Part shown: positions 1-28,183 of the stretch, one piece after another
Layout of the letters: the number at the start of each line of letters is the position of its first letter
Position numbering within the stretch: position 1 is the stretch's first letter
From: a virus
Taxonomy: Duplodnaviria; Caudoviricetes
Direction: 5' to 3' (one strand)
Length of the DNA stretch: 29,984 bases
IMG/VR virus record: IMGVR_UViG_3300025534_000029
Location: 1-29,984 of that record
Translations under genes and position numbers: made by a program
The notes under the pieces: model-generated
The model's database searches: none
The model's input: the letters and a program-made list of their open reading frames with translations, nothing else
What the model was told of the DNA's origin: nothing

Positions 1-51
1 CCTTCGTTTGCAACGCGGATAATTTTTTCATGAAAGGGGGGTAACGAAAGA

Positions 52-2071: not shown

Positions 2072-2090
2072 TGAAAGGCGGGTTTTTGTC

Positions 2091-2450: not shown

Positions 2451-2490
2451 TTACGGAAGTAGTGAAACAGATGAGAAAGGTGGTGAGAAC

Positions 2491-5854: not shown

Positions 5855-5856
5855 AA

Positions 5857-6132: not shown

Positions 6133-6449
6133 ATCCAGGAAGACTGAAACACCGAATTGAGATTCAAGAAAAGAAAACCGTAAAGGATCCAGTGACAAAA
6201 CTTCCCAAAGAAACATTGGTTACTATTCACGAATGCTGGGCTGAAATTGAACAGCCAACAGGGAGAAAATTTTTCGAGGCAGCTGTGGCTCATCTTGAAT
6301 ATGCCGTCTTTTTTAATATTCGCTATAAAGAAGGTATAAAACCTGGAATGGTTGTTTCATTTAAGGAAAAGACGTACGAAATTGAGCAAGTGAAACCGGA
6401 TTTACAGTTTAAAAGGTGGACTACCCTCCAATGTAAGGAGGTGGTCTGA
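6129..6449 (+). CDS. Head closure / head-tail adaptor
   Basis: MNPGRLKHRI, WAEI, FNIRY, YEIEQV motifs. Confidence 0.92.
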   Translation: MNPGRLKHRIEIQEKKTVKDPVTKLPKETLVTIHECWAEIEQPTGRKFFEAAVAHLEYAVFFNIRYKEGIKPGMVVSFKEKTYEIEQVKPDLQFKRWTTLQCKEVV

Positions 6450-6835
6450 TGGGCGCTTCAATGGAATTAGAAGGATTCGTTGAACTTCAAAAAAGACTAA
6501 ATGAATTAGGTAAAAAGGGAAAAAAGGTAGAAAACAGAGCAATTCAGGCAGGCGCTAAAATACTAGCTGACACTATAAGGAAAGAAGTTCCGGTTTCAAA
6601 CATTGACCATCTCCACATACGGGATGATATTCAAGTTTCTAGAACAAAACGGAAAAACGGTATAGCTTTCGCTGATGTTGGTCCTGGTAAAGAAACAGCA
6701 TGGCGTGCGAAATTCCTTGAATTTGGTACTGTGAAAATGCCGCCGAATCCTTTTATGTCTCGTGCAGAAAAAAAGTCACAAAATGAAGTGTTAGCTACAA
6801 TCAAACAAGAGATACGGAAGGAGTTGGACATATGA
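6449..6835 (+). CDS. HK97 gp10-like neck/tail morphogenesis protein
   Basis: FLEFGTVKMPPNPFM motif. Confidence 0.92.
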   Translation: MGASMELEGFVELQKRLNELGKKGKKVENRAIQAGAKILADTIRKEVPVSNIDHLHIRDDIQVSRTKRKNGIAFADVGPGKETAWRAKFLEFGTVKMPPNPFMSRAEKKSQNEVLATIKQEIRKELDI

Positions 6836-7200
6836 TTGATATGGAAGTGCCTGTTATATCGGCATTAGAAAATGATCCAACTCTTTCTTCTCTTGTTGGA
6901 GATAAAATTTTTCGCTTGATTGTTCCGGATGAATATGCAGATCAATATCCGTATATTCGTGTAATCGAAATTGATAATACTGACAACGACTATCGAGACA
7001 ACAAAGCGAAAGCAAGTGATATTGACGTTCAAATTGATTTTTGGACAAAAGACGATCCAGCAAGTTTACAAAATGCAATAGATAATGTAATGAAGTCGCT
7101 TCAATGGAAACGCATTGGGGTGGCTTCTTTTTATGAAGAAAATACCGGAGCAATCCGGAAAGCTATGCGTTACAAAACAAAAATTAGATTGGAGGAATAA
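6832..7200 (+). CDS. Tail completion/terminator protein
   Basis: Position before major tail gene; YPYI and VQIDFW motifs. Confidence 0.8.
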   Translation: MIDMEVPVISALENDPTLSSLVGDKIFRLIVPDEYADQYPYIRVIEIDNTDNDYRDNKAKASDIDVQIDFWTKDDPASLQNAIDNVMKSLQWKRIGVASFYEENTGAIRKAMRYKTKIRLEE

Positions 7201-7203
7201 TAT

Positions 7204-7779
7204 ATGGCAATTGTAGGTTTAGAAAATATTGTTTATGCAAAGGTGATTCAAGATGATAAAACAGGTGTTCAATATGATGAGGTAAAACCTTTTGCACCTG
7301 CTATTACCGCACAAGTTGAAACGGCACAAGAAAGTGCAACGCAATATGCAGATAATGGACCAATTAGTGTTATCACACAAACAGGAGAAACAACATTGAC
7401 CTTAACAGTTGATGAAATTCCTCTTGAAGTATTAGCTGATATTTTGGGATTAGAACTCAAAAAAGGTGTTCTTATTTATAAACAAGATGCTGTTCCTCCT
7501 TACATTGCATTAGGATTCACAGGAAATAAGGACAATGGGGAAAAGCGTTTAGTATGGCTAACAAAAGGGCGTTTCTCAATTCCAAGTGATGAATGGAATA
7601 CAAAAACAGATTCACCGGAATTTCAAAACCAAGAGATTGAGGGAACGTTTATCCGCAGAGAATTCGATAAAGTTTTCAAAATCGTTGGGGATACAGATAT
7701 TCCGGATTTTGCGCCGTACGTAGACACGTTCTTTGATTCTGTATTTGACTTGTCTGTGTTAGATGGCACAGGATCGTAA
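7204..7779 (+). CDS. Major tail (tube) protein, phi13-like family
   Basis: IVGLENIVYA, YADNG, PPYIALGF, VWLTKGRF motifs. Confidence 0.93.
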   Translation: MAIVGLENIVYAKVIQDDKTGVQYDEVKPFAPAITAQVETAQESATQYADNGPISVITQTGETTLTLTVDEIPLEVLADILGLELKKGVLIYKQDAVPPYIALGFTGNKDNGEKRLVWLTKGRFSIPSDEWNTKTDSPEFQNQEIEGTFIRREFDKVFKIVGDTDIPDFAPYVDTFFDSVFDLSVLDGTGS

Positions 7780-7781
7780 TG

Positions 7782-7808
7782 AGCCGGATTTTTATCCGGC
7801 TTTTTTTT
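7782..7808 (+). terminator. Intrinsic terminator after major tail gene
   Basis: AGCCGGAT-TTTT-ATCCGGCT then T-run. Confidence 0.9.
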
Positions 7809-7834
7809 ACATAAAACATTAGGAGGGAAAGATA

Positions 7835-8191
7835 ATGGAAATCACTTTGAAGATTAATGGTGATGATAAAACGTTTGTTCAAGAGTTTATCCCATTGAAG
7901 ATGTACCGAAAGGCACTAGAGGTGGAAAAATACGCACAATCCAAAAATGTAGACGAGGAAAAATTGTTTGATAAACGCCTCAATTTGATTGTGGAGGCGT
8001 TCGGCAAACAATTTACGAAGGATGAATTAGAAAATGGCTTAAATGCCATTGATCATCAGAAAGTATTCTATAACATTATTGGCGTTGGTATTTTAGGTTA
8101 TCGTCCTCTTGAAGAACAAGAAGACTTGGGAAAGTATCTAAAGGAACTCGTGGAAAACGAGTCACAATCGACGAACGAATCGACCAAATAA
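7835..8191 (+). CDS. Tail assembly chaperone (gpG-like)
   Basis: Between tail tube and tape measure; FGKQFTKDELENG motif; GGGAAAG slippery site at 8128-8134. Confidence 0.9.
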   Translation: MEITLKINGDDKTFVQEFIPLKMYRKALEVEKYAQSKNVDEEKLFDKRLNLIVEAFGKQFTKDELENGLNAIDHQKVFYNIIGVGILGYRPLEEQEDLGKYLKELVENESQSTNESTK

Positions 8192-8370
8192 AAGAGATTT
8201 ATTTACATCTCATGAACACTAGAGATTGGACGCCGGCTCAAATAGATGAAATTGATGTCCATTATTATTTTGAATTGTTAACACACCAAGAAAAAATGAA
8301 CGATCCGAAAGAAAAACGAAAAAGAAAATGGAGAAATCAAAAGGTTGTTCCGATCGATGCTGTTTTCTAG
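8128..8370 (+). CDS. Tail assembly chaperone gpT part, reached by -1 frameshift (fusion about 178 aa)
   Basis: -1 frame open from G GGA AAG to TAG 8368-8370: GKVSKGTRGK...IKEIYLHLMNTRDWTPAQIDEIDVHYYFELL...PIDAVF. Confidence 0.88.
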   Translation, partial: GKVSKGTRGKRVTIDERIDQIKEIYLHLMNTRDWTPAQIDEIDVHYYFELLTHQEKMNDPKEKRKRKWRNQKVVPIDAVF

Positions 8371-8385
8371 AAGGAGGTGGGGTAG

Positions 8386-11300
8386 ATGGCGGAAGAAACA
8401 CTTGGAAATCTCATTGTTCGTGTTGGGTTAGATGGAGCGAGTTTTGATAAGGGGCTTAAAAATATTAATGCTCGCATGCAATTAGTTAGAAGTGAATTAA
8501 AAGCTTCATCTTCATCTTTTGATAATTTTGGGAAAACAGTTGATAGCTTACGCGCAAAGCAAGACAACTTGGCAAAAATTTATCAACTGCAAGGTCAGCG
8601 CGTTCAACAGCTAAAGAAACAATATGACGAATTAGTGAAAGCGCACGGGGCTGAATCTGATGCGGCATTAAATGCCGGAAAACGTTTAAATAATGCAATT
8701 GCTTACTATAATAAACTAGGCAAGGAATTAGATAGTGTAAAGCAAGAATTACAAGAATTAGAGAAAAAAACAGCCTATCAGTCATCTGTTTGGGGAAAAG
8801 CAGAAAAGGCTTTATCGTCTTTTCAGCAAAAAGCGAATAGAACGAGCGAGACGCTAAAAACAATCGGAGAAAATTTAACAGCGAAAGTATCAGCTCCATT
8901 GGCTACACTCGGTGGATTTGCTCTAAAAACAGCTGTTGATTTTCAAAAGTCTCAAGGAAAGATGCAAGCAGCTCTTGGATTGACAGCTGAACAAACAAAA
9001 GAATTGAACGAAGTGGCTAAAAATGTATGGCGTGAAGGCTTTGGCGAAAGCCTAGATGATGTAACAAATGCTATTACTAGAGTATACCAGACAATGGGTA
9101 ATCTTCCAAAAAAAGAAATGGAAGAGGTTACAAAAGCTGCGTTTACGCTATCAGAGGTTTTTGATGCAGATGTAAATGAATCAACGAGAGCTGCGGCGCA
9201 ACTAATGCAACAATTCGGAGTATCCGGCACAGAAGCAATGGATATGATTACCGTAGCGTTTCAACGTGGCGGGAACTATTCTGATGAACTTTTGGATACC
9301 ATCAGCGAATATTCTACTCAATTCGCTAATATGGGATTTTCCGCAGAACAGATGATGGGAATGCTTATCTCAGGTGCCGAAAGTGGCATCTGGTCAATGG
9401 ATAAGCTTGCAGATTCTGTGAAAGAAAGCTTCTTACAAATTACAGACGGTTCTGAAAATACGAAAGAAGCATTGAAAGAATTAGGTCTTGATTACAATCA
9501 AATAACATCTGACATTCAATCCGGCGGAGATAAAGCGAACGCTGCGTTTATGGCTGTCATGACAGCTCTATCTAAAGTTAGCGATGAAGCTGATAGGAAT
9601 AGATTAGCTATTGAATTGATGGGAACTCCACTTGAAGATTTGGGGCCTCAGTATCAAGAATTTTTTGCACAAGCCGGAGAAGGAATGACAGATTTTCAAG
9701 GTGCGGCAAAAGATGCAGGAAAAGCTATTCGTGATAATTTAGGAACAAGAGTCCAAAAAGATTTACGAAAATTATCAGAAGCATTACTACCACTAGGTGA
9801 AGTAATGCTTAATGAAATTGAGCCTGCATTGGATAAGGGTATTAATTATATAGAACGCTTTACTGAGTGGTTGGAAAATCTATCTCCAGCAAGCAGAAAA
9901 GCGATAGTAGCTCTGCTTGGCATTGTTGCGGCAGCAGGACCATTAGGCATTGCGTTTAGTTTTATTTCAAAAGGTATTGGTTCCATCACTAAATTAATAG
10001 CAGGCGGTATTAAATATTTCGGTAATTTTAAAACAAATTTAACAACGACAACTAAGAATGCTGACCTATTAGGTAAAAGCGCAAATACAACTGGTAAAGC
10101 ACTACAAACTATAGGCACTAGTTCAGTTAAAACAACAGGAAAAATAATGAATTTTGGTGGGAAAATTTTAGGGTTAACTAAAAATATTAGTGGTCTATCT
10201 AAGATAGCTGGTATCGCTCGGTTTGGTTTGGGCGCTCTAGGTGGTCCATTGGGATTACTAGCAACTACAGCTATCCCACTTTTGATTCAAGGTGGCACAA
10301 AACTATATAAACATTTAAAAGAAGAAAACATACCAGCTATCAAAGACTTTGGAGATAAAGTTTCAGAATCTACTACTAAATCAGTTTTGGCATACAAAGA
10401 TTTAAATGATCAAGCAACAGCACAATTAAATCAATTAAGTTGGTCAGGACAAACTGTTTCAAAAGAAATTTACAATAATTTGACAAGTACTTTTAGTCAA
10501 ATGGGGAATCAAATTGCGGATAGTTTGAAGCAAGGATTTGATAAAAGTTATCAAAATTTAAGTTCATTTTTGTCAAATAGCAAAACATTATCACAGCAGG
10601 AACAGCAAGAGATTCTAAATAATGTAAAAAGCAAATATAACGAACAACAGCAGGCAGTTCAGGAAGCGCAAAATAGAATCAAACAAATTTTAGAAACAGC
10701 AAAAAATGAAAAGCGTGCATTGACCGAGCAAGAAAAGAACGAAATCAACCGAATTCAGCAACAAATGATGAATGTTGCTGTCCAAACCATGTCAAAGAGT
10801 GAACAGGAACAAAAAGTGATTTTGGAACGCCTGCGGCAAGAATCAGGGAATATTACTGCCAGACAAGCGGCAGAAACTGTCCAAAATAGCTTAAAAGCCA
10901 AAAATGGAGCGGTTAAAGAGGCGAATGATAAATATAACAAAACAGTTGCAGCTATTATCCGTGAACGTGATCAAACAGGATCCATTTCAAAGCAACAAGC
11001 CGACAAACTAATTAAAGAGGCAAAAAGACAGCGTGATGAAGCAATCAAAAGAGCAGAAGAAATGCATCAAAACGTTGTAGACCGAGCAAAGAAACAAGCA
11101 AAAGGGCAAGTTGATGAAATTGATTGGAGTACCGGACAAGTATTGACCAAGTGGGACAAAATGGTTCGTGGCGTTGCAAAAGCAGTTAATACAATTAGTG
11201 GTGGCATCAATTGGGTACTTGATAAAATCGGTCTAGATAAATATAAAATTCCAACATGGAAACCAAAAGGATATGCTAAAGGAACTCCATCCAGCGGACA

Positions 11301-12465
11301 TCCAGGTGGACCAGCTATTGTTGGTGAGAAAGGTCCAGAATTAGCATATATACCAGGAAAAGGAACAACTTTACTCGGAACTCAAGGAGCTGAATTTCAC
11401 CCCAATCTACCACGTGGTACAGCCGTGTTGCCGAATAAGGAGACAGAAAAAGTCCTAAAATCATATGGTTTTCCTGGTTATGCGAATGGGATTGGCGATT
11501 TCTTTAGCTTGGCATTGTCTGGTGCTGGCAAACTAATGGATAAAGTTTGGAAGATGTTTAAGCCATCCATTTCAGGTGTAGGTGGAACTTTAAAAACCTT
11601 AGGTGATGGGATTATCTCACTTTTAAAAGATAAGTCTCTTGATTTTATTAAGAAAAAGATTGATGATTTTTTCTCTTTTGACGGTTTGTCCGGTAATAAA
11701 AATGTTCAAGCATGGATTGCATCGGCTGTTAGAATTACAGGTGTTCCAACATCTTGGATTAAACCATTAGTAACTATTGCGATGAAAGAGTCAGGAGGGA
11801 ATCCCAGAGCAATTAACCTCTGGGATTCTAATGCGAAAGCAGGTAGAGCATCAAGAGGACTGATGCAAACTATTCCATCCACATTTAATGCTTATAAACT
11901 TCCGGGATTGGACGATATCTGGAATCCTATTCATAATGCAGTTGCGGCAATTCGATATATCAAAGCTCGTTATGGAACGGTATTCAATGTACCTGGAATC
12001 AAGAATTTAGCAAAAGGATTGCGCTACGTTGGGTATGCAAAAGGAACTAACTACCATCCTGGTGGATTAGCAATGGTTGGTGAAGAAGGGGAAGAACTTG
12101 CCTACATCCCGCGGAAAGGATTGGCTTTGGTTGGTGTAGGCGGACCAACATTGATGCGTCTGCCAGCCGGAACGTCTATTCTACCGCATGACGAAACAAA
12201 AGAATTTTTGAGATTTTGGGTTCCGGGTTATGCGGATGGAGTTGGCGATTACTTTAGAAGCAGTTCATTTACCAACCAAAACACAAACATTGCGGAAGCG
12301 ATCGCCCAAAGTATTGTAAAAGCATTGTCTGAATCACCACTTCAAATTTTGATCGAAAACATAACCAATTTAGATAGTCGGACAATCGCAAGAGAAACTC
12401 ATGAAATAGTCACTGAATTCCAAGAGTTTACGCGGCAGAGGAAGAATCGGTTTAAAAAGGGGTGA
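8386..12465 (+). CDS. Tape measure protein with C-terminal lytic transglycosylase (SLT) domain
   Basis: 1359 aa, helical; ESGGNPRAIN...GLMQ...NP..NAVAAIRY. Confidence 0.96.
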   Translation: MAEETLGNLIVRVGLDGASFDKGLKNINARMQLVRSELKASSSSFDNFGKTVDSLRAKQDNLAKIYQLQGQRVQQLKKQYDELVKAHGAESDAALNAGKRLNNAIAYYNKLGKELDSVKQELQELEKKTAYQSSVWGKAEKALSSFQQKANRTSETLKTIGENLTAKVSAPLATLGGFALKTAVDFQKSQGKMQAALGLTAEQTKELNEVAKNVWREGFGESLDDVTNAITRVYQTMGNLPKKEMEEVTKAAFTLSEVFDADVNESTRAAAQLMQQFGVSGTEAMDMITVAFQRGGNYSDELLDTISEYSTQFANMGFSAEQMMGMLISGAESGIWSMDKLADSVKESFLQITDGSENTKEALKELGLDYNQITSDIQSGGDKANAAFMAVMTALSKVSDEADRNRLAIELMGTPLEDLGPQYQEFFAQAGEGMTDFQGAAKDAGKAIRDNLGTRVQKDLRKLSEALLPLGEVMLNEIEPALDKGINYIERFTEWLENLSPASRKAIVALLGIVAAAGPLGIAFSFISKGIGSITKLIAGGIKYFGNFKTNLTTTTKNADLLGKSANTTGKALQTIGTSSVKTTGKIMNFGGKILGLTKNISGLSKIAGIARFGLGALGGPLGLLATTAIPLLIQGGTKLYKHLKEENIPAIKDFGDKVSESTTKSVLAYKDLNDQATAQLNQLSWSGQTVSKEIYNNLTSTFSQMGNQIADSLKQGFDKSYQNLSSFLSNSKTLSQQEQQEILNNVKSKYNEQQQAVQEAQNRIKQILETAKNEKRALTEQEKNEINRIQQQMMNVAVQTMSKSEQEQKVILERLRQESGNITARQAAETVQNSLKAKNGAVKEANDKYNKTVAAIIRERDQTGSISKQQADKLIKEAKRQRDEAIKRAEEMHQNVVDRAKKQAKGQVDEIDWSTGQVLTKWDKMVRGVAKAVNTISGGINWVLDKIGLDKYKIPTWKPKGYAKGTPSSGHPGGPAIVGEKGPELAYIPGKGTTLLGTQGAEFHPNLPRGTAVLPNKETEKVLKSYGFPGYANGIGDFFSLALSGAGKLMDKVWKMFKPSISGVGGTLKTLGDGIISLLKDKSLDFIKKKIDDFFSFDGLSGNKNVQAWIASAVRITGVPTSWIKPLVTIAMKESGGNPRAINLWDSNAKAGRASRGLMQTIPSTFNAYKLPGLDDIWNPIHNAVAAIRYIKARYGTVFNVPGIKNLAKGLRYVGYAKGTNYHPGGLAMVGEEGEELAYIPRKGLALVGVGGPTLMRLPAGTSILPHDETKEFLRFWVPGYADGVGDYFRSSSFTNQNTNIAEAIAQSIVKALSESPLQILIENITNLDSRTIARETHEIVTEFQEFTRQRKNRFKKG
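11269..12255 (+). repeat. Two copies of a ~75-aa module flanking the SLT domain (11269-11505 and 12031-12255)
   Basis: GYAKGT..HPGG.A.VGE.G.ELAYIP.KG..L.G..G....LP.GT..LP..ET...PGYA.G.GD.F occurs twice. Confidence 0.85.
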
Positions 12466-12469
12466 GTGA

Positions 12470-13924
12470 ATGAGTTTTTCTTTTAACGGTGAAACGAGAG
12501 ACTATTTAACAGTGTTACGTGGAAGAAAACGCAGTGCGTGGGCACCGAGAAGTTTGAACCTCCTAACCGTCCCGCGCAAACCGGGTGCCTACCTGCAAGG
12601 AGTGGAAACATCTGTACGTGAAATTGAAGTGCCGATCGGATTGGTTGCGAAAAATATCGGTGACTTACAAAAGTTAAAGGAAGACTTAGCAGGGTGGTTA
12701 GTGACCGATGAGCCGAAAGAACTGATCTTTGAAGATGAGCCTGACCGCGTGTATTATGCGATTGTTGACGAAACGCCCGATTTTGAGGAGATCGTGCGGA
12801 TTGGACAAGGAACCATTCGGTTTATCTGCCCCGACCCTTATAAATACGGAACTGAAAAAGAAGCCATTTTCCCGTCAGACGTTGTTTCGTTGAATTATAA
12901 CGGAACAGCGCCGGGTGATCCGGTTTTTGAGCTGGAAGCAACACAACCGGTCACTTTCGCAATGATTCAAAACCAAAACGAAGAGTACATGATGATCGGG
13001 AAGCCGGCAGATGCGGAACAAACAACCGTCAACACACGAACGCTTATTTTAGATGAGAGAGGCGAAACGCTTGACACGTGGTCAAGTTCACCAACACAAA
13101 TTGACGCAGTAGACGCAGTAGTCACAGGGTCATTTGGCACTGATGGTGTCGGAATTACTGTCGCCAGTTATGGAACAGGCGAGAATTGGCACGGTCCGGC
13201 ACTAATTAAAGAAGTGCCTGTTACGCAAGATTTTGAGGTAGAAATGCTCTGCGAGGCTCAAACAAATCGCGTTAATGAGACGTTTCGTATTGAATTTTAT
13301 CTATTCGACGAATCAATGAATGTTATAGGAAAAATGAATATTTGGGATAATAGCATAGATTTATATCGAATTGAAGCAGAGGGTCGATACGGGCCTTTTG
13401 TCGATACTTTTGTTCACTATGTAATAAGTGGAAAAAACTATCAATTTAGAAATTGGGATTACTATCGTGGAGTTATTCGGATGAGGCGAGAAGGGAATAC
13501 ATTCGAATTTTATACCGCACGAATCAACGACAAAGGAACCCATTATTACACATTGAAGTTGCCTTACGTCGATTCGGCGGGGGAATATTTAGGGCGACTG
13601 AAATACGTTCAAATTCACATTGGTACGTTCGGTTCGACTGGGTACCCCGGTCAATTGGGAGGTTCTTTTGCGCGAATTAATCGCATCCGGGCATACGCTT
13701 TACAAAAAGCAACGGCCGATCAAACCCCGTATATCGCTTATCCCGGAGACGTTATCACGTTTGATCATATAACAAAAGATATCTTGATCAACGGAGAAAG
13801 TCGAAAAGATTTGAAAGATTTTGGGGCAAGGTTTTTCAAATTACAAAAGGGTCAAAACACATTTGTTGTTATGCCTTCAAACTCACTCGCTGTTCGGACT
13901 AGATTCCGAGAACGTTTCTTATAG
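12470..13924 (+). CDS. Distal tail protein (Dit), enlarged form with inserted beta-rich domain
   Basis: SFSFNG, ELIFEDEPDRVYYA, FICPDPYKYG; 484 aa. Confidence 0.88.
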   Translation: MSFSFNGETRDYLTVLRGRKRSAWAPRSLNLLTVPRKPGAYLQGVETSVREIEVPIGLVAKNIGDLQKLKEDLAGWLVTDEPKELIFEDEPDRVYYAIVDETPDFEEIVRIGQGTIRFICPDPYKYGTEKEAIFPSDVVSLNYNGTAPGDPVFELEATQPVTFAMIQNQNEEYMMIGKPADAEQTTVNTRTLILDERGETLDTWSSSPTQIDAVDAVVTGSFGTDGVGITVASYGTGENWHGPALIKEVPVTQDFEVEMLCEAQTNRVNETFRIEFYLFDESMNVIGKMNIWDNSIDLYRIEAEGRYGPFVDTFVHYVISGKNYQFRNWDYYRGVIRMRREGNTFEFYTARINDKGTHYYTLKLPYVDSAGEYLGRLKYVQIHIGTFGSTGYPGQLGGSFARINRIRAYALQKATADQTPYIAYPGDVITFDHITKDILINGESRKDLKDFGARFFKLQKGQNTFVVMPSNSLAVRTRFRERFL

Positions 13925-13935
13925 GGGGTGATATT

Positions 13936-16900
13936 TTGATACACATTACCGATTCGCAAACAGACAGGATTCTTGATGTTATAGACGAAGATGAATTTTG
14001 GGAAGACAAGCATTACAAGTCTTTGAAAGATACCCTTGAAACGTTCGATTTTGTAACGTTTGCTGATAAGCGATTTTCTGAACATCTAGCAAAGAGAAAT
14101 CGTATCATCATTCCCGATGAGGACGGAAAATATGTTGAATTTGTGATCGAGAACACACGGAAATACCGTGATTCGAACGGTGGTTTGTATATCGAAGTCT
14201 ACACAAGTGCAACATACATTGAGCTGACAAAAGCGAAAGTCATCAAACCGCAAACATTGTCAGACCAAACCGTTTCAACTGCCGTCAGTCACGCTATTGG
14301 CGGAACTGAATGGGAAGCCGGCACAATAGCGAATGTTGGAACGAGAACATTTGTTATAGAAGAACACACGAACCCTTATTCGTTTTTGAAACGTATTGCA
14401 AGCGAATTTGATCTTGAACTGCATTTCCGTGTAGAAGTGGACGGAAACAAAGTCGTTCGTCGTTATGTTGATCTTGTCGAACGTGTCGGCATGTGGCGCG
14501 GACGTGAGGTTGAATTCGGGAAAGACCTGATCGGTATTGAACGAAAAGAAGACTTCTCGAATATTGTCACTGCATTGATCGGACTTGGTCCCGAAAGAGA
14601 GAACGGCACACGACTAGAGGTTTTCGTCGAGGACAAAGACGCACTCGCACGTTGGGGTCGAAACGGACAACACCTTATCGAAGTGTATGAACCGGAATCA
14701 ACCGACCAAACCATGACGGAAGAACGATTGCGTGAACTGACGCAAAACGAACTTGAAAAGCGCATAAACTCGATAGTTGAGTACACAGCCGACATTGCCG
14801 ACTTGGAAAAAGTGCCGGGCTTGGAGCATGAAAAGATAAGGTTCGGAGATACGATCAAGATTAAGGACACGGGATTCAACCCACCGCTATATCTTGAAGC
14901 CCGTGTTCATACAATCGAAAGAAGCATCAAAAAGAACGGCTATAAAACCGTCACACTCGGTGACTATATCGAGTACACGGAAGAGCAAGTTTTCGCAATT
15001 TGGAAGTCGCTAAAAGCTGAGATCGCGAAAAAAGTTTCGTTATCCGACGTGATGGAAGTTACGTACACCAAAACGGAGATTGACGACAAAGACGCGGGTG
15101 TGTACCAAGACAGCACGCAATATTCAGACGTCATATCGGAGACGAAAAAACAGGAAGCAATTCAAGTTGCTGCGGAGGATGCGACAGAAAAGGCAAATCA
15201 AGCCAAACAGGAAGCAGTTGAGCAGGCTGAATCCATTGCGGAACAAAAAAAGCAGCTGGCGATTCAAGCGGCTATTGCGGATGCTGAGACAAAGATAAAT
15301 GCAGCAAAAACAGCACTTGAAGCTGATATTGCAACTAAGGTTGATGCGCAGTGGGTAAACGGCCAGCTTGTGTTAAAAGAAAACGCAATTACAAAATCCA
15401 ACACAGCGCCGGTAAACCCAACGGTAGGTCAATTGTGGGTAGACACATCTATAACGCCAAACGTTTTGAAGCGTTGGAGCGGAAGCGCATGGGTGAAAGC
15501 AAGCCCAACAAGTGCGGGAGAGGTTGGAGCATACACAAAAACAGAAGTGGATAATGCGCTAAACTCGAAAGTCTCGGTAACTCAATATAACACGGACATG
15601 AACGGTGTAATCACGAGACTAGACAGCGCAGAAAGCCGTATAACTCAAACAGAAAATGAAATTGCAACAAAAGTCAGCAACACGACATATCAGCAAGATA
15701 AAGCGGCTTTAGAAAACGACATTTCTGCGCTAGAAACCCGCATGACAAACGCTGAAACATCCATCACGCAAAACGCTAATCAGATTGCTCTAAAGGCTAA
15801 CAAAACAGACGTTTATACAAAGACCGAGATTGACGGTCAGTTTAGCACCGTCAATCAGCAAATCTCTCAATTGAATGCAGAATTGAGTGTGCAAGCTGGG
15901 GAGATTGCGACGAAAGTTTCAAAGACAGAGTTTGAGAGTTTGCAGATTGGTGGTAGAAACTTACTAAGAAATACCGACTTTAGAAGCGGTTCGTCCTACT
16001 GGATATTAAATAACGCTACAATTACTCCTAATTTATATAAAGGTTATACAGGATTGACTAAACCTGTGCCCACGTCAGGTGTGAATGACACATATGCAGA
16101 TTTCTTAGCCGAACCTAACGTTCAATATACGCTTAGTTTTTATGCGAAAGGTAAATTTCAAGCCTTTTTGATTCCTATGAAGAGTGAGGCTCCAGGATGG
16201 AATCCAACAGACAATTATCATGACAATCGTATTTTTGTTGATTCTCAAACAGATTTTACCTTAATAACTAAAACTACACTTGTTACTCCTCCTGACACTA
16301 AGCGTATAAGAGTGATTTTTAGAACAGAGGCAGGAAATCCATCTATTGTTTATATTGCTTTACCTAAAGTTGAAAAAGGCAACCGCGCCACAGACTGGAC
16401 GCCAGCGACGGAAGACGTGCAAGGTCAAATCGACAGTCTCGGAACACGCGTGAACAGTGCCGAAACCTCCATCACGCAATTGTCAAATCAAATACAACTC
16501 AAAGCGAACCAGTCGACTGTTGATACGTTGGCGAATCGTATTAGCAGCGCTGAATCGACACTAACGATCCATACGAATCAGATTGCAAGTAAAGTAAGCC
16601 AAACTGATTTTAACGGCAATACAATAGCATCACTCATCAACCAAACCGCAACTACTATAAAGCTTCTGGCTGAACGAATAGAATTTGCCGGTCATGTTTT
16701 TGGAGAAGATGCAACATTCAGCGGAAACATAGAGGTTAGGAAAACAGTCGATAATCAAGTGTTTGACAATATGTTTAATGGTGATGAATTTCGATTTGTA
16801 AAATTTAAAAAAGGTATAACGAACCCAAATACTAAAAACATCGATTTATCTCAAGTTGAAAATATGGCAAAAATCTTTTATGACGGTGTCGCTTTCGCAA

Positions 16901-17712
16901 ATTCAAGTCAGTCTATGGGTTTAGGATTGAGCGGCATTACTCATAGTGGTCTTCTGAACGTGTATGCGAATCGGATTGCGATGAGCGCAGTTTCAGCGGT
17001 AGAAATTACGTCGCCTGTTAGTATTTGGGGAAATACAGATGTTTGGGGATCGCTTACAGCCGACACTCTGAAATCCAGAGATACTATTGAGTTCGGGGCA
17101 GACGGTAGGTTGGTGAATGATGGGGTAACGTCATGGATTCAAGGCAATGAAATAAGGGCTACGAAATACAAAACATCGGCAGACTATGTAAATTTTAGAG
17201 CAAACTGGGTATACGCGGAGTCTTTGGATATAAATACTGGGGTAAATTTGTATATCAGACCCACAAGTAGCGGGAATTTGAGAGTGACCGCTACAGGAAC
17301 AACTAACAATTGGAGACCAGTTGAAGCGGGGGGATTTGAAAACAGATCGCAGGCAAGTATTAAACAGGATATTGAGTTATGGACCGGATCGGCGCTAAAC
17401 ATAATTAATCGGGCGCAGATTTACCAATATAGATTAAAAACAGATGTTGCAAACGGCATTGATAAGTTAAAATATAGCCTAGTCATCGGAGATGGATTTA
17501 ATACACCTGAAGAGTTTCTATCAGTGAGTGGTGAGTCTATAGATGTATATGTACAAACAAATATCAATACAAAAGCAATTCAAGAACTAGACTATAAAAT
17601 CAATGATAACAAAGACGAGATTGAATGGCTTAAACTCGAAAATCAATATCTCAAGCAAAAAGTTTCTTTATTAGAATCAAGAATTCAAGAACTGGAGGCG
17701 AAAATGGCATGA
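13936..17712 (+). CDS. Tal-like tail spike/fibre: N-terminal hub, coiled-coil repeats, carbohydrate-binding-like module, C-terminal S74-like chaperone
   Basis: IVTALIGLG, FGDTI; YTKTE(I/V)D and R..SAE..ITQ repeats; IGGRNLL...KVEKGNRATDWTPA; SQASIKQDI followed by coiled coil. Confidence 0.88.
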   Translation: MIHITDSQTDRILDVIDEDEFWEDKHYKSLKDTLETFDFVTFADKRFSEHLAKRNRIIIPDEDGKYVEFVIENTRKYRDSNGGLYIEVYTSATYIELTKAKVIKPQTLSDQTVSTAVSHAIGGTEWEAGTIANVGTRTFVIEEHTNPYSFLKRIASEFDLELHFRVEVDGNKVVRRYVDLVERVGMWRGREVEFGKDLIGIERKEDFSNIVTALIGLGPERENGTRLEVFVEDKDALARWGRNGQHLIEVYEPESTDQTMTEERLRELTQNELEKRINSIVEYTADIADLEKVPGLEHEKIRFGDTIKIKDTGFNPPLYLEARVHTIERSIKKNGYKTVTLGDYIEYTEEQVFAIWKSLKAEIAKKVSLSDVMEVTYTKTEIDDKDAGVYQDSTQYSDVISETKKQEAIQVAAEDATEKANQAKQEAVEQAESIAEQKKQLAIQAAIADAETKINAAKTALEADIATKVDAQWVNGQLVLKENAITKSNTAPVNPTVGQLWVDTSITPNVLKRWSGSAWVKASPTSAGEVGAYTKTEVDNALNSKVSVTQYNTDMNGVITRLDSAESRITQTENEIATKVSNTTYQQDKAALENDISALETRMTNAETSITQNANQIALKANKTDVYTKTEIDGQFSTVNQQISQLNAELSVQAGEIATKVSKTEFESLQIGGRNLLRNTDFRSGSSYWILNNATITPNLYKGYTGLTKPVPTSGVNDTYADFLAEPNVQYTLSFYAKGKFQAFLIPMKSEAPGWNPTDNYHDNRIFVDSQTDFTLITKTTLVTPPDTKRIRVIFRTEAGNPSIVYIALPKVEKGNRATDWTPATEDVQGQIDSLGTRVNSAETSITQLSNQIQLKANQSTVDTLANRISSAESTLTIHTNQIASKVSQTDFNGNTIASLINQTATTIKLLAERIEFAGHVFGEDATFSGNIEVRKTVDNQVFDNMFNGDEFRFVKFKKGITNPNTKNIDLSQVENMAKIFYDGVAFANSSQSMGLGLSGITHSGLLNVYANRIAMSAVSAVEITSPVSIWGNTDVWGSLTADTLKSRDTIEFGADGRLVNDGVTSWIQGNEIRATKYKTSADYVNFRANWVYAESLDINTGVNLYIRPTSSGNLRVTATGTTNNWRPVEAGGFENRSQASIKQDIELWTGSALNIINRAQIYQYRLKTDVANGIDKLKYSLVIGDGFNTPEEFLSVSGESIDVYVQTNINTKAIQELDYKINDNKDEIEWLKLENQYLKQKVSLLESRIQELEAKMA

Positions 17713-18143
17713 TTGTACGAATCGAAAATGGAAAATTAGCACAAGTTATTAATCTTCTATATGATTTACCTTTACGGGGGAAACAATCACGTTACCGTAC
17801 TAAATTTATAAAATTATTGAATGCTCAACTTGAAGAATATCGGCAAGATTTCGAGCAGCTGCTTAAGGAACATTGTCATCTGGATGAAAACGGTGAACCA
17901 ATTGTAAAAGACGACAACACATATGATGTCAAGGACGTCGAGGCATACCTCAAAGACAAAAAGGAACTGGATGAAGAGGTGTTTGTTATTGAGAGTGTAA
18001 GTAAACAAGACATGCTTAAGACGGTAAAAGAGATTTTGATGAACTGTGACCGCGAGTTCAGCGGACAAGAAGCAATGATATACGATTATATTTGTGAAAA
18101 ATTTGAGGAAGCTGAAAAAGAGGAAAAGAAGGGAGATAAATGA
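17709..18143 (+). CDS. Conserved phage protein after tail fibre (DUF1617-like)
   Basis: LRGKQSRYRTKFIKLL motif; ATGA overlap. Confidence 0.7.
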   Translation: MIVRIENGKLAQVINLLYDLPLRGKQSRYRTKFIKLLNAQLEEYRQDFEQLLKEHCHLDENGEPIVKDDNTYDVKDVEAYLKDKKELDEEVFVIESVSKQDMLKTVKEILMNCDREFSGQEAMIYDYICEKFEEAEKEEKKGDK

Positions 18144-18361
18144 TCATGAACATTCAAATTACCAACATTAATATTCATTATCAAGATGGCAATGTTGCTG
18201 GTGTACAAGTGTATTTCACGGGTAATGATGAGGAAAGAGCAATCAACTTGAATGGATATGTCCCGCTCACAGCAGAAGAATATGTCGGAAATGAAGCAAT
18301 CACAGAGTTATCGAAAATCGTAAGACAAAAAATTAATGAAAAATTAAACCCTGCTGAATAG
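18140..18361 (+). CDS. Small hypothetical phage protein
   Basis: RBS GGGAG, ATGA overlap, INLNGYVPLT. Confidence 0.75.
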   Translation: MIMNIQITNINIHYQDGNVAGVQVYFTGNDEERAINLNGYVPLTAEEYVGNEAITELSKIVRQKINEKLNPAE

Positions 18362-18376
18362 GTAGGGTTTTGTTTT
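18346..18376 (+). terminator. Probable terminator before the lysis cassette
   Basis: AAACCCTGC...GTAGGGTTT then TGTTTT. Confidence 0.6.
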
Positions 18377-18397
18377 GACTAAGAAAGGAGTATAAAA

Positions 18398-18802
18398 ATG
18401 GAGAACATCATTAAATATGCTTCAGCCGGAATCGGAGCAGTGATCTCATTTGCGTTTGGGGGATGGCATACATTGTTAAGTATCTTACTAGCATTCGTCG
18501 TAATAGATTACGTATCAGGATTTTTTGCAGCAGGAATTGAAGGAAAATTAAACAGCAGCACTGGAATGAAAGGGATCGCCAAAAAAGTGGCGGTCTTTTT
18601 TGTTGTTGCTGTTGCCCACATGATGGACGTTGCGCTAGGTTATGACGGCCATATTTTGCGTGATGCTACAATCTTTTTCTTTTTGGCAAACGAAGCGCTG
18701 TCTATCCTCGAAAACGCCGGGAGAATCGGTGTTCCGGTTCCGGGAGTGCTCAAAAAAGCTATCAACATTTTGAACGAAAAAAGCGAAGGAGAGGGTAAAT
18801 GA
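18398..18802 (+). CDS. Holin (toxin secretion/phage lysis holin family)
   Basis: FGGW, IDYVSG, LANEALSILEN.GRIGVPVP; transmembrane segments. Confidence 0.95.
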   Translation: MENIIKYASAGIGAVISFAFGGWHTLLSILLAFVVIDYVSGFFAAGIEGKLNSSTGMKGIAKKVAVFFVVAVAHMMDVALGYDGHILRDATIFFFLANEALSILENAGRIGVPVPGVLKKAINILNEKSEGEGK

Positions 18803-19668
18803 TGGTGAAAATCAAAAAACAACTGGTCTCAAGCCGTAAGAATACCTATGACGGCATAAATGGACGTAAATATATAACCATTCATGAAACAGACAATACG
18901 AATAAGGGCGCAAATGCTCAAGCACATGCAAACTTGCAGTCGAGAGGAAATTCAAGATCAGCTTCTTGGCATTGGACAGTTGATGACAAAGAAGCCATAC
19001 AATCTTTTCCGCATACGGTGCGCTGTTGGGCTGCTGGAGACGGGAAAGGCGACGGAAACTATAACTCTATTCATATTGAAATATGTGTCAACAGTGATGG
19101 TGATTTTAATAAAGCTGTTGAAAATGCGGCAGAACTAACAAGAATGATTATGGAACAAGAAAATATTCCACTATCGAATGTGGTTCAGCACAACCATTGG
19201 AGTGGAAAAAACTGCCCGCGCAATTTGAGATCTGGTTCAAAAGGTATTACGTGGAATGATTTTTTAAATATGGTTGTTGGGAAAAAGGTTGATACACCGA
19301 AAAAAGAAGTTAAGCCTGCACAAACAAAAAATAAAGCGAATCTCGTAGTTGACGGAAAATGGGGAAGTGAAACGACAAAGGCGCTACAAAAAGCGTTAGG
19401 AACAGTAGTAGACGGAGTTATTAGCAGCCAACCAAGGAACCACGTTACAGAAGCTATTTACAACGGAATTACGTTTGGAGACAAAGGCAGCATGGTAATT
19501 CGAGCGTTGCAGAAAAAAATTGGCGCTAAGGTTGACGGGAAATTGGGTCCGGAGACAGTGCGAAAATTACAAAAATATCTCGGTACGCCGGTTGATGGGA
19601 AAATCAGCAGACCAGAATCTTTGATGGTGAAAGAATTACAGAGAAGATTGAATGAAGGTACATTTTAA
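18799..19668 (+). CDS. Endolysin: N-acetylmuramoyl-L-alanine amidase (Amidase_2) with peptidoglycan-binding repeats
   Basis: ITIHET, SWHWTVDD, IHIEIC, QHNHWSGKNCP; VDGKWG.ET.KALQ repeats. Confidence 0.96.
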   Translation: MMVKIKKQLVSSRKNTYDGINGRKYITIHETDNTNKGANAQAHANLQSRGNSRSASWHWTVDDKEAIQSFPHTVRCWAAGDGKGDGNYNSIHIEICVNSDGDFNKAVENAAELTRMIMEQENIPLSNVVQHNHWSGKNCPRNLRSGSKGITWNDFLNMVVGKKVDTPKKEVKPAQTKNKANLVVDGKWGSETTKALQKALGTVVDGVISSQPRNHVTEAIYNGITFGDKGSMVIRALQKKIGAKVDGKLGPETVRKLQKYLGTPVDGKISRPESLMVKELQRRLNEGTF

Positions 19669-23666: not shown

Positions 23667-23882
23667 TCACCCTACTTTTCGTTTCTTTATTGGACCAATT
23701 GAAAGGATGTTCGATCGCTTAAACGTTCGAAAAGTTTTTCGAAAATGACAGTAAGCACGAATGTATTTATCATTAAAGTCTTTAACCGTAATGAATCTTT
23801 CTGTTATTACCCCTTGATCGTTCATGTAGATCATCCTTAAAGCAAAACCGCACTTTTTGGCATTCAGCAGCAAACCGTTCAT
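23667..23882 (-). CDS. Small stand-alone WYL/YolD-like domain protein
   Basis: MIYM...G.ITERFI.V......IRAYCHFRKTFRTFKRSNILS; RBS GAGGTG supports ATG 23882. Confidence 0.75.
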   Translation of the reverse strand: MNGLLLNAKKCGFALRMIYMNDQGVITERFITVKDFNDKYIRAYCHFRKTFRTFKRSNILSIGPIKKRKVG

Positions 23883-23901
23883 GAATTTCACCTCGAAAAA
23901 A

Positions 23902-23944
23902 GAACATTTGTTCTTATTATAACCGAATATACGTTCTGTGTTAA
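23902..23944 (-). promoter_or_regulatory. SigmaA promoter with two LexA/DinR (SOS) boxes
   Basis: GAAC-ATTT-GTTC 23902-23913; GAAT-ATAC-GTTC 23925-23936; TTAACA-17-TATAAT. Confidence 0.85.
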
Positions 23945-23973
23945 TAATTAAAATTAGGAATTAGAAATGAAAT

Positions 23974-23999
23974 ATGGACAAACAATATTTTCATATCCT
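23974..23999 (+). promoter_or_regulatory. Putative mother-cell promoter: SpoIIID-type box and sigmaE/sigmaK-type -10
   Basis: ATGGACAAAC fits WWRRACARNY; CATATCCT fits CATAnnnT. Confidence 0.6.
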
Positions 24000-24022
24000 C
24001 CTATAGGGAGGATTGATATTTC

Positions 24023-24193
24023 ATGAAAATTATCGTTATTAGAGGAAAGAATATTTCTAAAAACATACAAAATTGCTATGATTATATATTGAAAATGTAC
24101 GGAGGGGGATGCAGTAATAATGATTGCAATCTATGCAAGAGTGAGTACCGAAGAACAAGCGTTAAAAGGGAGCAGCATAGAAAGTCAGATTGA
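24023..24193 (+). CDS. Unannotated 56-aa ORF overlapping integrase start, putative recombination directionality factor (Skr-like)
   Basis: RBS GGGAGG 24006-24011; MKIIVIRGKNISKNIQNCYDYILKMYGGG... Confidence 0.6.
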   Translation: MKIIVIRGKNISKNIQNCYDYILKMYGGGCSNNDCNLCKSEYRRTSVKREQHRKSD

Positions 24194-25607
24194 GGCATGC
24201 ATCAATAAAGCAGGGACAACCGATGTTCTGCGATATATAGATGATGGATATTCAGGAGAATTGTTGGAACGTCCTGGATTGAACAAGCTTCGTGAAGATG
24301 TTGAAAAAGGATTAATCGATAAAGTCATTTGTTATGATCCTGATCGATTATCAAGAAAACTCATGAATCAATTGCTTATTGATGATGAATTTCGGAAAAA
24401 AGGAGTAGAATTGGTATTTGTAAACGGAGAATACGCAAATACTCCTGAAGGACAGCTTTTCTTTTCTATGAGGGGAGCAATAGCTGAATTTGAAAAAGCA
24501 AAAATTAAAGAACGGACAATGGGAGGGAGGAGACAAAAAGCTAAAAAAGGTATCATCATTAAAAATAGTGGATTATACGGATATACATATAATAAGGAAA
24601 AAAGAACATATGAAATCAATGAAGATGAAGCAAAAATTGTACGAATGATTTTTGACTATTACACAGAACAAAGATTCCATGGAATTAATAGTCTTGCAAA
24701 ACATCTGACCAAAATCGGTGTTCCAACCAAAAATGGAGCCAAAGAATGGCATAGACAAGTCGTTAGACAAATCTTAATGAATGAATCATATACGGGTAGA
24801 TATTATCAAAACAAATGGAATACTGAAGGGGCATATGTGAGAAAGCAAGCCGGAAAAGTCGGAGGAATGCATTTGCGAGAAAAAGATGAATGGATAGAAA
24901 CGAAAATACCGGCTATTATATCAGAAGAGCAATTTGCAAGAGCGCAGGAATTGCTAAAATACGCAAGGAGAAGAACCGAAAGTTATGGTCGTCATCAATA
25001 TCTTTTGTCAGGTTTGGTCCGTTGTGGTCGATGTGGAGCGACGATGAACGGAAAAAAGACGGTCAGAAGAGGAAAAGCAAAATATGATTATGTTTGTAGA
25101 AAAAATTATGCAGGGGCAAAAAACAAAGGCTGCGGAAGACAAATGAGTGAACAAAAGCTTGATCATATTGTTTGGAATCAGGTTTTAGAATGGCTAAATG
25201 ATCCTGAAGAATTAAGCAAATATAAACCGAGCGACAATAAACAATATATATATGAAGAAATAAAACAAATAGAAACAGAGATTGAGAAAACAAGAAAAGG
25301 CCGAAAACGGCTTTTGAAGCTTGCAAGCCTTGATGAGGAACTAGAACTTGAAGAGATCAAAGAACAATTGAGAGAACTCCAAGAGAAAGAAAAAACACTA
25401 ACGGAACAGTATAGCGAATTGCAGAGGGAATTGGAAGAACAAAAGAGCAACAATAACAATAATGAAATACTTTTAAAAGAGGCTCTTGAATACTTTCTTA
25501 AAAACAAAGACGATATAACTTTTGATAAAAAGCAACATATAATAAGAAAGTTAATTAAAGAAATTGTAGTTGTGGATGCTGAAACAGTTTATATTTACAC
25601 GTACTAG
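24120..25607 (+). CDS. spoIVCA: Large serine recombinase, SpoIVCA/CisA (skin recombinase) homolog
   Basis: YARVST catalytic motif, YDPDRLSRKLMNQL, WHRQVVRQILMN, zinc ribbon LLSGLVRCGRCG...CRKNY.GAK..GC; matches my recollection of CisA along its length. Confidence 0.93.
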   Translation: MIAIYARVSTEEQALKGSSIESQIEACINKAGTTDVLRYIDDGYSGELLERPGLNKLREDVEKGLIDKVICYDPDRLSRKLMNQLLIDDEFRKKGVELVFVNGEYANTPEGQLFFSMRGAIAEFEKAKIKERTMGGRRQKAKKGIIIKNSGLYGYTYNKEKRTYEINEDEAKIVRMIFDYYTEQRFHGINSLAKHLTKIGVPTKNGAKEWHRQVVRQILMNESYTGRYYQNKWNTEGAYVRKQAGKVGGMHLREKDEWIETKIPAIISEEQFARAQELLKYARRRTESYGRHQYLLSGLVRCGRCGATMNGKKTVRRGKAKYDYVCRKNYAGAKNKGCGRQMSEQKLDHIVWNQVLEWLNDPEELSKYKPSDNKQYIYEEIKQIETEIEKTRKGRKRLLKLASLDEELELEEIKEQLRELQEKEKTLTEQYSELQRELEEQKSNNNNNEILLKEALEYFLKNKDDITFDKKQHIIRKLIKEIVVVDAETVYIYTY

Positions 25608-25630
25608 GTCGCCGTATGGGGCGACCTTTT
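25606..25630 (+). terminator. Terminator after integrase
   Basis: AGGTCGCC-N6-GGCGACCT-TTT. Confidence 0.75.
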
Positions 25631-25662
25631 GACATCAAAATTTCGTTTTTGATATCAAAAGG
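25625..25662. other. attP site (predicted target sigK)
   Basis: CCTTTTGACATCAAAA-TTTCGT-TTTTGATATCAAAAGG, 16-bp arms with one mismatch; minus strand reads AAC GAA ATT TTG ATG. Confidence 0.8.
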
Positions 25663-25705
25663 GTACGTCATGGAGTTATTTAGGAACGAATGTTTGGTTT
25701 GGCAA

Positions 25706-25730: not shown

Positions 25731-25731
25731 T

Positions 25732-26749: not shown

Positions 26750-27163
26750 TTATATATACCTCTCCATCTCCAAAGGAATCCCATTTTCTCGCAAAATATC
26801 ATATTTGGTTTCATAATCTTCTAAATTTTCTCCGTGTAAGAGGAGATGGACAGCGAATTCATTTGCCTCACGTTCGATTTTGTCTTTTGAGAATAAAGTA
26901 TTCTTATGTAAAAAAGGTGTATTCTCATCTTTGTGAAGAATAGCGTGTCCAAGTTCATGAGCACAAACAAATTTTTTTAAATAGTCTTCTATATCGGAAT
27001 TAATAGTAATAACTTGATGACGAACATTTTTCATATAGAACCCCAATGTTTGACCAAGAGGAAAATATCTAATAATGATATTTCTGTTTTTTGCAATTTC
27101 AAAAGGATTATTTGTCCGGTGTTTTTTAATCTCTCTATCTAATGTCCGTATAATCCAATTCAA
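26750..27163 (-). CDS. immA: ImmA/IrrE-family metalloprotease (anti-repressor)
   Basis: TNNPFEIA, CAHELGHA (HExxH), EREANEFA; likely TTG start at 27163. Confidence 0.93.
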   Translation of the reverse strand: MNWIIRTLDREIKKHRTNNPFEIAKNRNIIIRYFPLGQTLGFYMKNVRHQVITINSDIEDYLKKFVCAHELGHAILHKDENTPFLHKNTLFSKDKIEREANEFAVHLLLHGENLEDYETKYDILRENGIPLEMERYI

Positions 27164-27174
27164 GAAACTCACTC

Positions 27175-27624
27175 CTAATCTTTACGGTATTTTTTGGGAG
27201 TGAATTTTTTCTTAGCGAGTTGTTTTGTAAGTCTTAAGTTACTTTCGATCGCTGCCTTAACCAATTCTTTTGTTTCCTCGTCCATTGGCTCACCGTCAAA
27301 GGCTAGAGCTGTATCTGAATCCATGCTTTCGAGTATTTTTTCAAGTTGCTTAGCAATGTCTCGTTCGTCTTTTGCCGTTAACCTAGGAAGATTATCTTTA
27401 TGGTTTGATGGGTTATTAGATCTTGGGTTATCAGATCTTCCAAGTAAATAATCTGTTGATGTTTCGAGCACATCAGCCAGTAGAGCTAACATTTCATTCG
27501 AGGGCGTGCTATACCCGTTTTCATAATTACTAATTGTTCCTTTTGTAGTATTCACTTTTTTTGCTAGTTCTTCCTGAGTATACTTTCTAAGTTTTCTCAT
27601 ATGTTTAAGCCTTTGGGATAGCAT
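27175..27624 (-). CDS. XRE-family immunity repressor (ImmR/CI-like)
   Basis: TQEELA...TISNYENG..STDYLLGR; RBS AAGGGTGA supports ATG 27624. Confidence 0.93.
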   Translation of the reverse strand: MLSQRLKHMRKLRKYTQEELAKKVNTTKGTISNYENGYSTPSNEMLALLADVLETSTDYLLGRSDNPRSNNPSNHKDNLPRLTAKDERDIAKQLEKILESMDSDTALAFDGEPMDEETKELVKAAIESNLRLTKQLAKKKFTPKKYRKD

Positions 27625-27644
27625 ATCATCACCCTTTTTTAAAT

Positions 27645-27761
27645 GTACAAGTTTATTGTACATAAATTAAATTAAATTTAAACAATAGTACAAAAAAATT
27701 GTACTTTTGTATTGACATACAAGTTTCTTGTACATATAATAAAAGTACAAGATATTCATAC
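27645..27761. promoter_or_regulatory. Genetic switch: four 17-bp operators and consensus rightward promoter
   Basis: GTACAAG-N3-(C/A)TTGTAC-like sites at 27645, 27688, 27717, 27745; TTGACA(27712)-17-TATAAT(27735). Confidence 0.9.
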
Positions 27762-27778
27762 AACAAGGTGGTGAGACA

Positions 27779-28003
27779 TTGAAAAATACCAATTTAATTA
27801 ACTCACGTAAATCCAAAGGATTAACACAAGAGCAATTGGCCCATATAGTAGGATGCAAGGGTAGACAAGCCGTTTCTAACTGGGAGAATGGCTATTCAAC
27901 TCCTCCGTTAGCAATTGCTCTAAAGGTTGCAGAAGTATTAGAAAAAGATGTTGCTTTTTTATTTGGACATAAAGTACAAGAAACTCATACAAATTCAGCC
28001 TAA
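27779..28003 (+). CDS. Cro-like XRE regulator
   Basis: GLTQEQLA...AVSNWENG; divergent from repressor; RBS AAGGTGGTG. Confidence 0.92.
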   Translation: MKNTNLINSRKSKGLTQEQLAHIVGCKGRQAVSNWENGYSTPPLAIALKVAEVLEKDVAFLFGHKVQETHTNSA

Positions 28004-28054: not shown

Positions 28055-28183
28055 ATGAAAAAACACTCATCGATGAAAGTCATAGTCGTAAAAGGCGAAA
28101 ACTTTGAAAAAGTCGTCAAAGAAGCGCAAAACCATTTTTTTGATTTCTTGACACAATACACAAAAGAAAAGGAGGCGTCTTGA
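28055..28183 (+). CDS. Unannotated 42-aa ORF, paralog of the ORF upstream of the integrase
   Basis: RBS GGGAGGTGA; MKKHSSMKVIVVKGENFEKVVKEAQNHFFDFLTQYTKEKEAS; TGATG coupling to next gene. Confidence 0.75.
   Translation: MKKHSSMKVIVVKGENFEKVVKEAQNHFFDFLTQYTKEKEAS

Follow-up and report, generated by a model that had tools for sequence, protein, structure and literature searches.

A skin-type skr-integrase-attP cassette in a temperate siphovirus, likely of Aeribacillus

The stretch of DNA analysed here (the window) is a whole record, a single virus contig of 29,984 bp, and very probably derives from a temperate siphovirus, likely of Aeribacillus, that carries a skin-type cassette of skr, integrase and attP. 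Close copies of this cassette are joined to both halves of sigK. With the gene split in this way, a lysogen could complete its spore only if the virus were excised in the mother cell. For decades, skin has been a textbook case of developmental DNA rearrangement, known only as a dead prophage. Infectious sigK phages have already been published (phiS63 and MMB025), and the lifestyle as such is known; these live phages are clostridial or a distant 105-kb myovirus, whereas the present case comes with an identified, likely host genus that has skin-free strains. New, in turn, are a B. subtilis-type unit in an apparently live phage and a second Skr-family gene. Two questions become accessible to experiment with this system: how a phage may interrupt a gene essential for sporulation and still not leave its host sterile, and how a single integrase could serve two excision signals.

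The contig likely comprises the left two thirds of the phage genome. Its genes are arranged in the order terminase, head, tail and lysis, followed by a reverse-strand accessory block, the recombinase, a membrane-protein gene, an ImmA/ImmR/Cro-type switch and the first early genes (Table 1). A preliminary description of the window had considered the structural and lysis genes unbroken, and this assessment holds: all 21 late ORFs from terS to the lysin gene are open and closely packed, and the head proteins align with their relatives over nearly the full length at 76-99% identity. The late module is that of an HK97-type siphovirus, without breaks. As likewise foreseen, replication genes lie elsewhere; neither these nor late-regulator genes were found on the 29,984-bp record, which ends in the early operon. 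A 43,392-bp contig carries the same integrase and terminase clusters as the window.

Table 1. Features of the window, with coordinates in window positions.
Feature	Position	Strand	Remarks
Late module, cos-type siphovirus	1..19668	+	Terminase, portal, ClpP protease, capsid, connector, tail, tape measure, Dit, tail fibre, holin, amidase
Excisionase-like HTH gene	20903-21112		
Small ORF	23667..23944	-	Strong leftward sigma-A-type promoter; two LexA-like boxes (23902, 23925)
Predicted skr-integrase promoter	23974..23999	+	Predicted SpoIIID box 23974-23983 and sigma-E -10 element 23992-23999
Hairpin	23995..24013	+	Pairs the -10 region with the skr ribosome-binding site
skr homolog	24023..24193	+	56 aa; read in a different frame from the integrase, whose start it overlaps by 74 nt; predicted directionality factor for excision during sporulation
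SpoIVCA-type large serine integrase	24120..25607	+	495 aa; Resolvase, Recombinase and Zn-ribbon domains
attP	25625..25662		38-bp inverted repeat, 16-bp arms, 6-nt centre, 1 mismatch
Immunity switch	26750..28003		ImmA-like protease and ImmR-like repressor (-), Cro-like gene with perfect sigma-A-type promoter (+)
Stand-alone Skr homolog	28073..28183	+	36 aa, or 42 aa if started at the upstream ATG (28055); follows cro as the second early-operon gene; candidate lytic directionality factor

Three minor features of the contig can be recorded here. Within the accessory block, a PemK/MazF-like gene and the 103-aa ORF upstream of it (window 22065-22867) form a possible toxin-antitoxin pair. The interval between terL and the portal gene holds a 142-aa ORF (window 2022-2450), which is missing at that position in the close relative L047. 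Finally, the contig ends in a GC-rich, tRNA-looking stretch (29960-29984) that runs on in contig L027 (14775-14890); ARAGORN detected no tRNA in L027 or L281, and Rfam gave no match in the window or L027.

The beginning of the contig bears on the state of the DNA. In relatives, the base corresponding to window position 1 directly follows a GC-rich, cos-like 9-mer about 330 bp before terL, and approximately this base is also the first in 11 of the 50 related contigs whose beginning falls within 10 kb of terL (8 metagenomic, 3 resembling curated phage genomes). The start of terS at position 52, that is 51 bases after the contig beginning, is close to the layout described for P. larvae cos phages, whose terS lies 50 bp from base 1 and whose 3' overhangs comprise 9 bases (PMC6070908). 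Given that the contig opens directly behind the cos-like site, we take it to be packaged or lytically replicating DNA and not a sporulation circle; terminase-cut DNA is the simplest reading and would favour an active phage. The attP configuration noted in the earlier proposal stands, while its view that the phage was caught in excised form is better replaced by this reading.

Evidence on the host comes mainly from one genome, G116, whose SigK is identical to a protein filed under Aeribacillus. G116 holds three CRISPR spacers to the window with 100, 97 and 94% identity; the perfect one covers 35/35 bases and belongs to a 24-repeat array, and two of the three protospacers are flanked by TTC. G116 has no SpoIVCA match, its sigK is intact, and no close integrase was found in this genome or in the 30 genomes drawn as its relatives. 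At 90% clustering, the terminase and lysin of the window group with proteins of Aeribacillus, and the terminase additionally with a protein from Anoxybacillus. These similarities point to Aeribacillus as the likely host genus. Together with the cos-like end and the intact late genes, the spacers bear indirectly on whether the phage would form infectious particles.

At the centre of the cassette lies a large serine recombinase, followed by the 38-bp inverted repeat with AAA AAC GAA ATT TTG ATG at its minus-strand centre, both located as first described (Table 1). The preliminary description had proposed an end-to-end likeness to SpoIVCA, and the comparison, now run against P0034 (a B. subtilis cluster source-named SpoIVCA), gave 289/501 identical residues end to end (58%). 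Searching genomes with the integrase yielded 26 loci, nine of which have a convergent 5' sigK just downstream that ends in the ENEI codons. In an even sample of 401 Bacillales genomes, a threshold of E 1e-90 or better gave 22 SpoIVCA-like matches: seven show the B. subtilis geometry, eight have a downstream 3' sigK in the same direction, one is in attP form and six lack sigK within 900 bp. In other words, 15/22 abut a sigK half, and in all 15 matches located next to a sigma half, this half is sigK. No vegetative promoter for the integrase was identified in the window sequence.

Two side observations concern the wider recombinase family. In eight of the 22 elements (L203, L204, L205, L208, L209, L212, L216, L217), the sigK site is the same but used in reverse orientation, the integrase lying beside 3' sigK. 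A further set of loci (L017-L023, L128, L129, L213-L215) carries recombinases with 47-50% identity and longer skr-like ORFs, with no sigK downstream.

The ORF overlapping the integrase start matches an HMM of 26 non-self Skr N-termini with E 1.6e-12. Upstream of skr, the motif GGACAA, 10-12 bases, CATA recurs in 33/44 distinct regions and occurs twice in the whole window; going by consensus sequences, we predict its two elements to be a SpoIIID and a sigma-E site, respectively. In B. subtilis, sigma-E and SpoIIID are both reported to control spoIVCA (PMC517825), and Skr is described as a 64-aa directionality factor with a sigma-E and SpoIIID promoter, whose gene overlaps spoIVCA by 101 nt (PMC6957869), compared to 74 nt in this phage. 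The promoter region also contains a hairpin (z about -4 in the window). A transcript from the sigma-E promoter would lose this structure, and by hiding the ribosome-binding site, the hairpin could let upstream transcripts yield integrase without Skr; since z falls below -1.5 in only 17/33 homologs, we treat this as a side idea. The small leftward ORF further upstream, with two boxes that we assume to be LexA-like from their consensus, is placed just outside the cassette because phages with other integrases share it.

The cassette appears to move between phages. The segment 23695-25729 is 93% identical in L028, a myovirus that has baseplate genes and whose holin differs. Phage AP45 and a G116 prophage, in turn, follow the window up to about 23955-23961; the AP45 integrase is unrelated (26% identity) and AP45 lacks skr. 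Occurrence in both a siphovirus and a myovirus provides a natural example of the swapping of such units suggested in PMC6957869.

Phage genes lie on both sides of the inverted repeat, which confirms its initial reading as attP rather than attL or attR. It was the only inverted repeat of such quality in the window by direct scan, with none in five shuffles; a seeded repeat search had overlooked it because the mismatch interrupts a 9-nt seed. Near relatives have perfect arms (L028/L120), a difference also present in all four runs aligned to 25480-25760. The centre dinucleotide (25643-25644) is positioned as in B. spizizenii skin junctions, and the stretch common to attP and the host sigK spans 25633-25649.

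Similarity alone is indecisive about the target, because attP matches G116 sigE at 21 and G116 sigK at 20 of 38 positions. The core string is likewise uninformative by itself, being present in 9/401 genomes (4 in sigK, 4 in sigE, 1 elsewhere). We therefore rely on junctions, obtained by aligning contigs of four runs (X2, X4, X7, X16) to 25480-25760. A contig from X2 follows the phage through 25649 and continues with 17 foreign bases, corresponding to the 5' sigK junction, while X4 and X7 each provided one 47-nt contig with 13 foreign bases followed by phage sequence from 25633, corresponding to the 3' junction; X16 contained attP only. Both foreign flanks match the ENEILM-codon flanks in the intact G116 sigK with 0 mismatches, as compared to 3-6 and 3-9 mismatches at 16 other sigK and sigE sites. 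Such contigs need real junction reads, because the shared stretch is shorter than the 31-base word of the Logan assembly. The related contig L119 also ends at the repeat centre.

At about 47 nt and one per run, the junction contigs are short; they stem from relatives that differ by a few percent, and X2, X4 and X7 may belong to one campaign. None of the four runs contained both junctions, and the possible source run of the window contained attP only. As the myovirus L028 carries the same cassette, the contigs need not come from this siphovirus. An att site with inverted arms within the ENEILM codons of sigK is hence established, at the level of sequence, for the cassette and not necessarily for the phage itself. 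The expectation that attP arms would be found joined to sigK halves was borne out in short contigs of relatives, but not in any genome with this prophage integrated; no integrated copy of the phage was found, the best match in the genome search being 61% identical.

If sigma-E drives skr and the integrase, this promoter cannot explain excision on induction. The ORF right after cro was the second-best Skr-HMM match among 624 window segments (E 7e-4), and profile-profile comparison of its family with Skr gave a probability of 97% (E 1e-10 over 29 columns). A stand-alone homolog is present in the early operon of all four phage-form cassettes with a readable region (window, L032, L125 and PK1). 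Among 14 integrated elements, taken from 13 of the 22 sampled SpoIVCA genomes plus G003, nine have the homolog (8/14 with a four-sequence HMM, 5 of them at E < 0.015, the ninth being added by the Skr HMM). All nine copies lie in the early or replication region, and two pairs are close relatives. Of the five elements without it, one is a truncated contig, the far end of another was not reached, a third is a minimal element of 9 kb, a fourth has a different layout and the fifth case is unexplained. A bridging form (L238/L243) retains the Skr Cys-Tyr motif, and B. spizizenii skin has a 46-aa copy, presumably yqdA, after its cro-like gene.

The 36-aa ORF family is enriched in, yet not confined to, elements with the cognate integrase. 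Across 379 sampled genomes without SpoIVCA, four had a stand-alone homolog, one had skr beside a truncated integrase and one gave a spurious partial match; no stand-alone homolog was found in the nine SpoIVCA genomes outside the fetched element set. As the positives in 9/22 SpoIVCA genomes are HMM training rows, the corresponding Fisher test (p 5e-10) is circular for positives and carries no support. AP45 carries an ORF 100% identical to the 36-aa ORF, and the family has 92 representatives at 50% clustering. On three viral records with the ORF (L285-L287), no integrase was reached, and no resolvase domain was present in the two searched. The Skr-like small ORFs found in genomes without SpoIVCA (L264, L265, L266 and L271) include three whose neighbours are HTH or tyrosine-recombinase genes belonging to small mobile elements.

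These data suggest the following course of events. Upon infection, the integrase alone would recombine attP with the site in sigK codons 111-112, splitting the gene. In the mother cell, sigma-E and SpoIIID would switch on skr and the integrase, the prophage would be excised and sigK restored, while the forespore would keep the prophage. After DNA damage, an ImmA-like protease would remove the repressor and turn on the early operon, leading to excision, replication and cos cutting for packaging; the most likely helper for this induction-time excision would be the 36-aa Skr homolog, to which we assign, from its sequence and with somewhat less than an even chance, the role of lytic directionality factor. 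Both excision steps are modelled on what is described for B. subtilis (PMC6957869) and C. difficile (PMC5025042). Extending this, natural skin phages may possess two Skr-family factors per integrase, with the overlapping skr acting in sporulation from a mother-cell promoter and the stand-alone copy acting in lytic induction from the repressor-controlled early operon. The skin of the B. subtilis group could then be a phage in which both factors persist, while the virion and vegetative expression of the integrase have been lost, and the Aeribacillus phage a live model of the skin ancestor. We consider this broader scheme possible, with rather less than an even chance of being correct. If true, integrase engineering would gain a very small switch in a directionality factor of 36 aa.

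Other readings of the same data have to be weighed. The contig could represent the circle that a skin-like, non-infectious prophage releases in sporulating mother cells. An attP form is what such a circle would look like, no replication genes were seen, and attP and junction contigs occur in the same runs. A circle, however, has no cos end, whereas the contig starts right after a cos-like site; moreover, none of the 21 late ORFs is interrupted, spacers against the phage occur in a host whose sigK is intact, and the cassette resides in two unrelated virion types, which together render this explanation improbable. Integration in sigE, an ambiguity raised in the preliminary description, or in both sigE and sigK, would agree with the slightly better match of attP to G116 sigE and with the core string in sigE of four other genomes. 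The junction flanks, in turn, are exact to G116 sigK and show 5 and 8 mismatches to G116 sigE, and the integrated homologs beside a sigma half are in sigK in 15/15 cases. This excludes sigE as the source of the junctions and makes a sigE target extremely improbable.

For the 36-aa ORF, the balance is different. It might be a small protein of the early operon, from a wider family out of which Skr was recruited, in which case lytic excision would rely on skr itself, from another promoter, or on another gene. We give this reading an even chance. It accords with the identical ORF of AP45 next to an unrelated integrase, with homologs in four genomes lacking SpoIVCA and with the breadth of the family, and SPbeta is described as having one RDF gene with a stress and a mother-cell promoter (PMC6957869), jobs that this phage may divide between two genes. 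Arguing for a directionality factor are the clear homology to the conserved N-terminal part of Skr, with the bridging form and its Cys-Tyr motif, and the rarity of the ORF outside SpoIVCA genomes (4/379). AP45, too, can be explained differently: it tracks the window to 23955, just before the cassette, and may have swapped integrases while keeping the ORF.

Compared with B. subtilis skin, the phage with its 58% identical integrase shares the overlapping skr in a shifted frame, the promoter motif, the sigK site with its centre dinucleotide, an integrase convergent with 5' sigK, and a repressor and cro-like gene at the far end. Skin, which is defective, is described as not being excised by mitomycin C (PMC6957869), whereas here the late module is unbroken, one end is cos-like and a host genome carries spacers against the phage. 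The Aeribacillus element would thus work like skin but, judging from its open late ORFs and cos-like start, is not classed as a defective skin. An engineered SPbeta-skin chimera is reported to be infectious, indicating that the skin unit can run an infectious phage (PMC6957869); that chimera is artificial, while the Aeribacillus phage is a natural carrier. SPbeta itself, inserted in spsM, is described in the same source as an active prophage that is excised both on induction and in the mother cell.

Among published sigK phages, phiS63 of Clostridium perfringens is, by its description, the first functional example (PMC3442830). It is an inducible cos siphovirus with its integrase opposite to sigK, and the phage studied here is likewise predicted to be of cos type; phiS63 differs in its clostridial host and in using another region of sigK than the B. 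subtilis site, and the text covered mentions no directionality factor for it. MMB025 is reported to form plaques and to be integrated in Alicyclobacillus sigK (PMC13141910). Its integrase belongs to the SpoIVCA family (51% over 359 aa), but it is a 105-kb, contractile-tailed phage with headful packaging, unlike this cos siphovirus; no second Skr copy was found in 30 kb of its 105 kb. A survey of 15 skin elements reports the recombinase as their sole common gene (10.1101/2022.02.25.481979). The literature covered, mainly open-access main texts and including passages of 10.1101/2020.11.18.388090, contains no natural infectious phage with the skin unit in Aeribacillus and no mention of a second Skr copy.

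Several related elements merit mention in their own right. MMB025 (L283) has an unannotated skr-like ORF before its integrase at about 12394-12500 on the minus strand (E 6e-6), with a similar promoter motif. The isolated Bacillus phage PK1 (L034, OM112209.1; 5907-7540 and 9198-9308) has both skr and a second Skr copy, together with a SpoIVCA-type integrase (49%) and an attP-like repeat in the opposite orientation; its annotation reads only 'recombinase family protein', and PK1 is probably an unrecognised sigK phage. Remnants and reduced forms were also observed. At the far end of the B. spizizenii skin (G001), a truncated second skr-spoIVCA copy lies beside the 3' sigK half (L223, 15492-15870). 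In G334, an intact sigK is followed by convergent skr and an 82-codon integrase stub (L267, 357-1600), the scar of a lost skin. G003 contains a minimal skin of approximately 9 kb (L254, 12026-20000), in which neither a second Skr copy nor a match to the tested phage proteins was present. In the myovirus L028, finally, a gene with an FGE-sulfatase fold precedes an Avd gene (2525-5061), as in diversity-generating retroelements; the Avd gene is followed by a LAGLIDADG-type gene, however, and no reverse transcriptase was seen in the locus.
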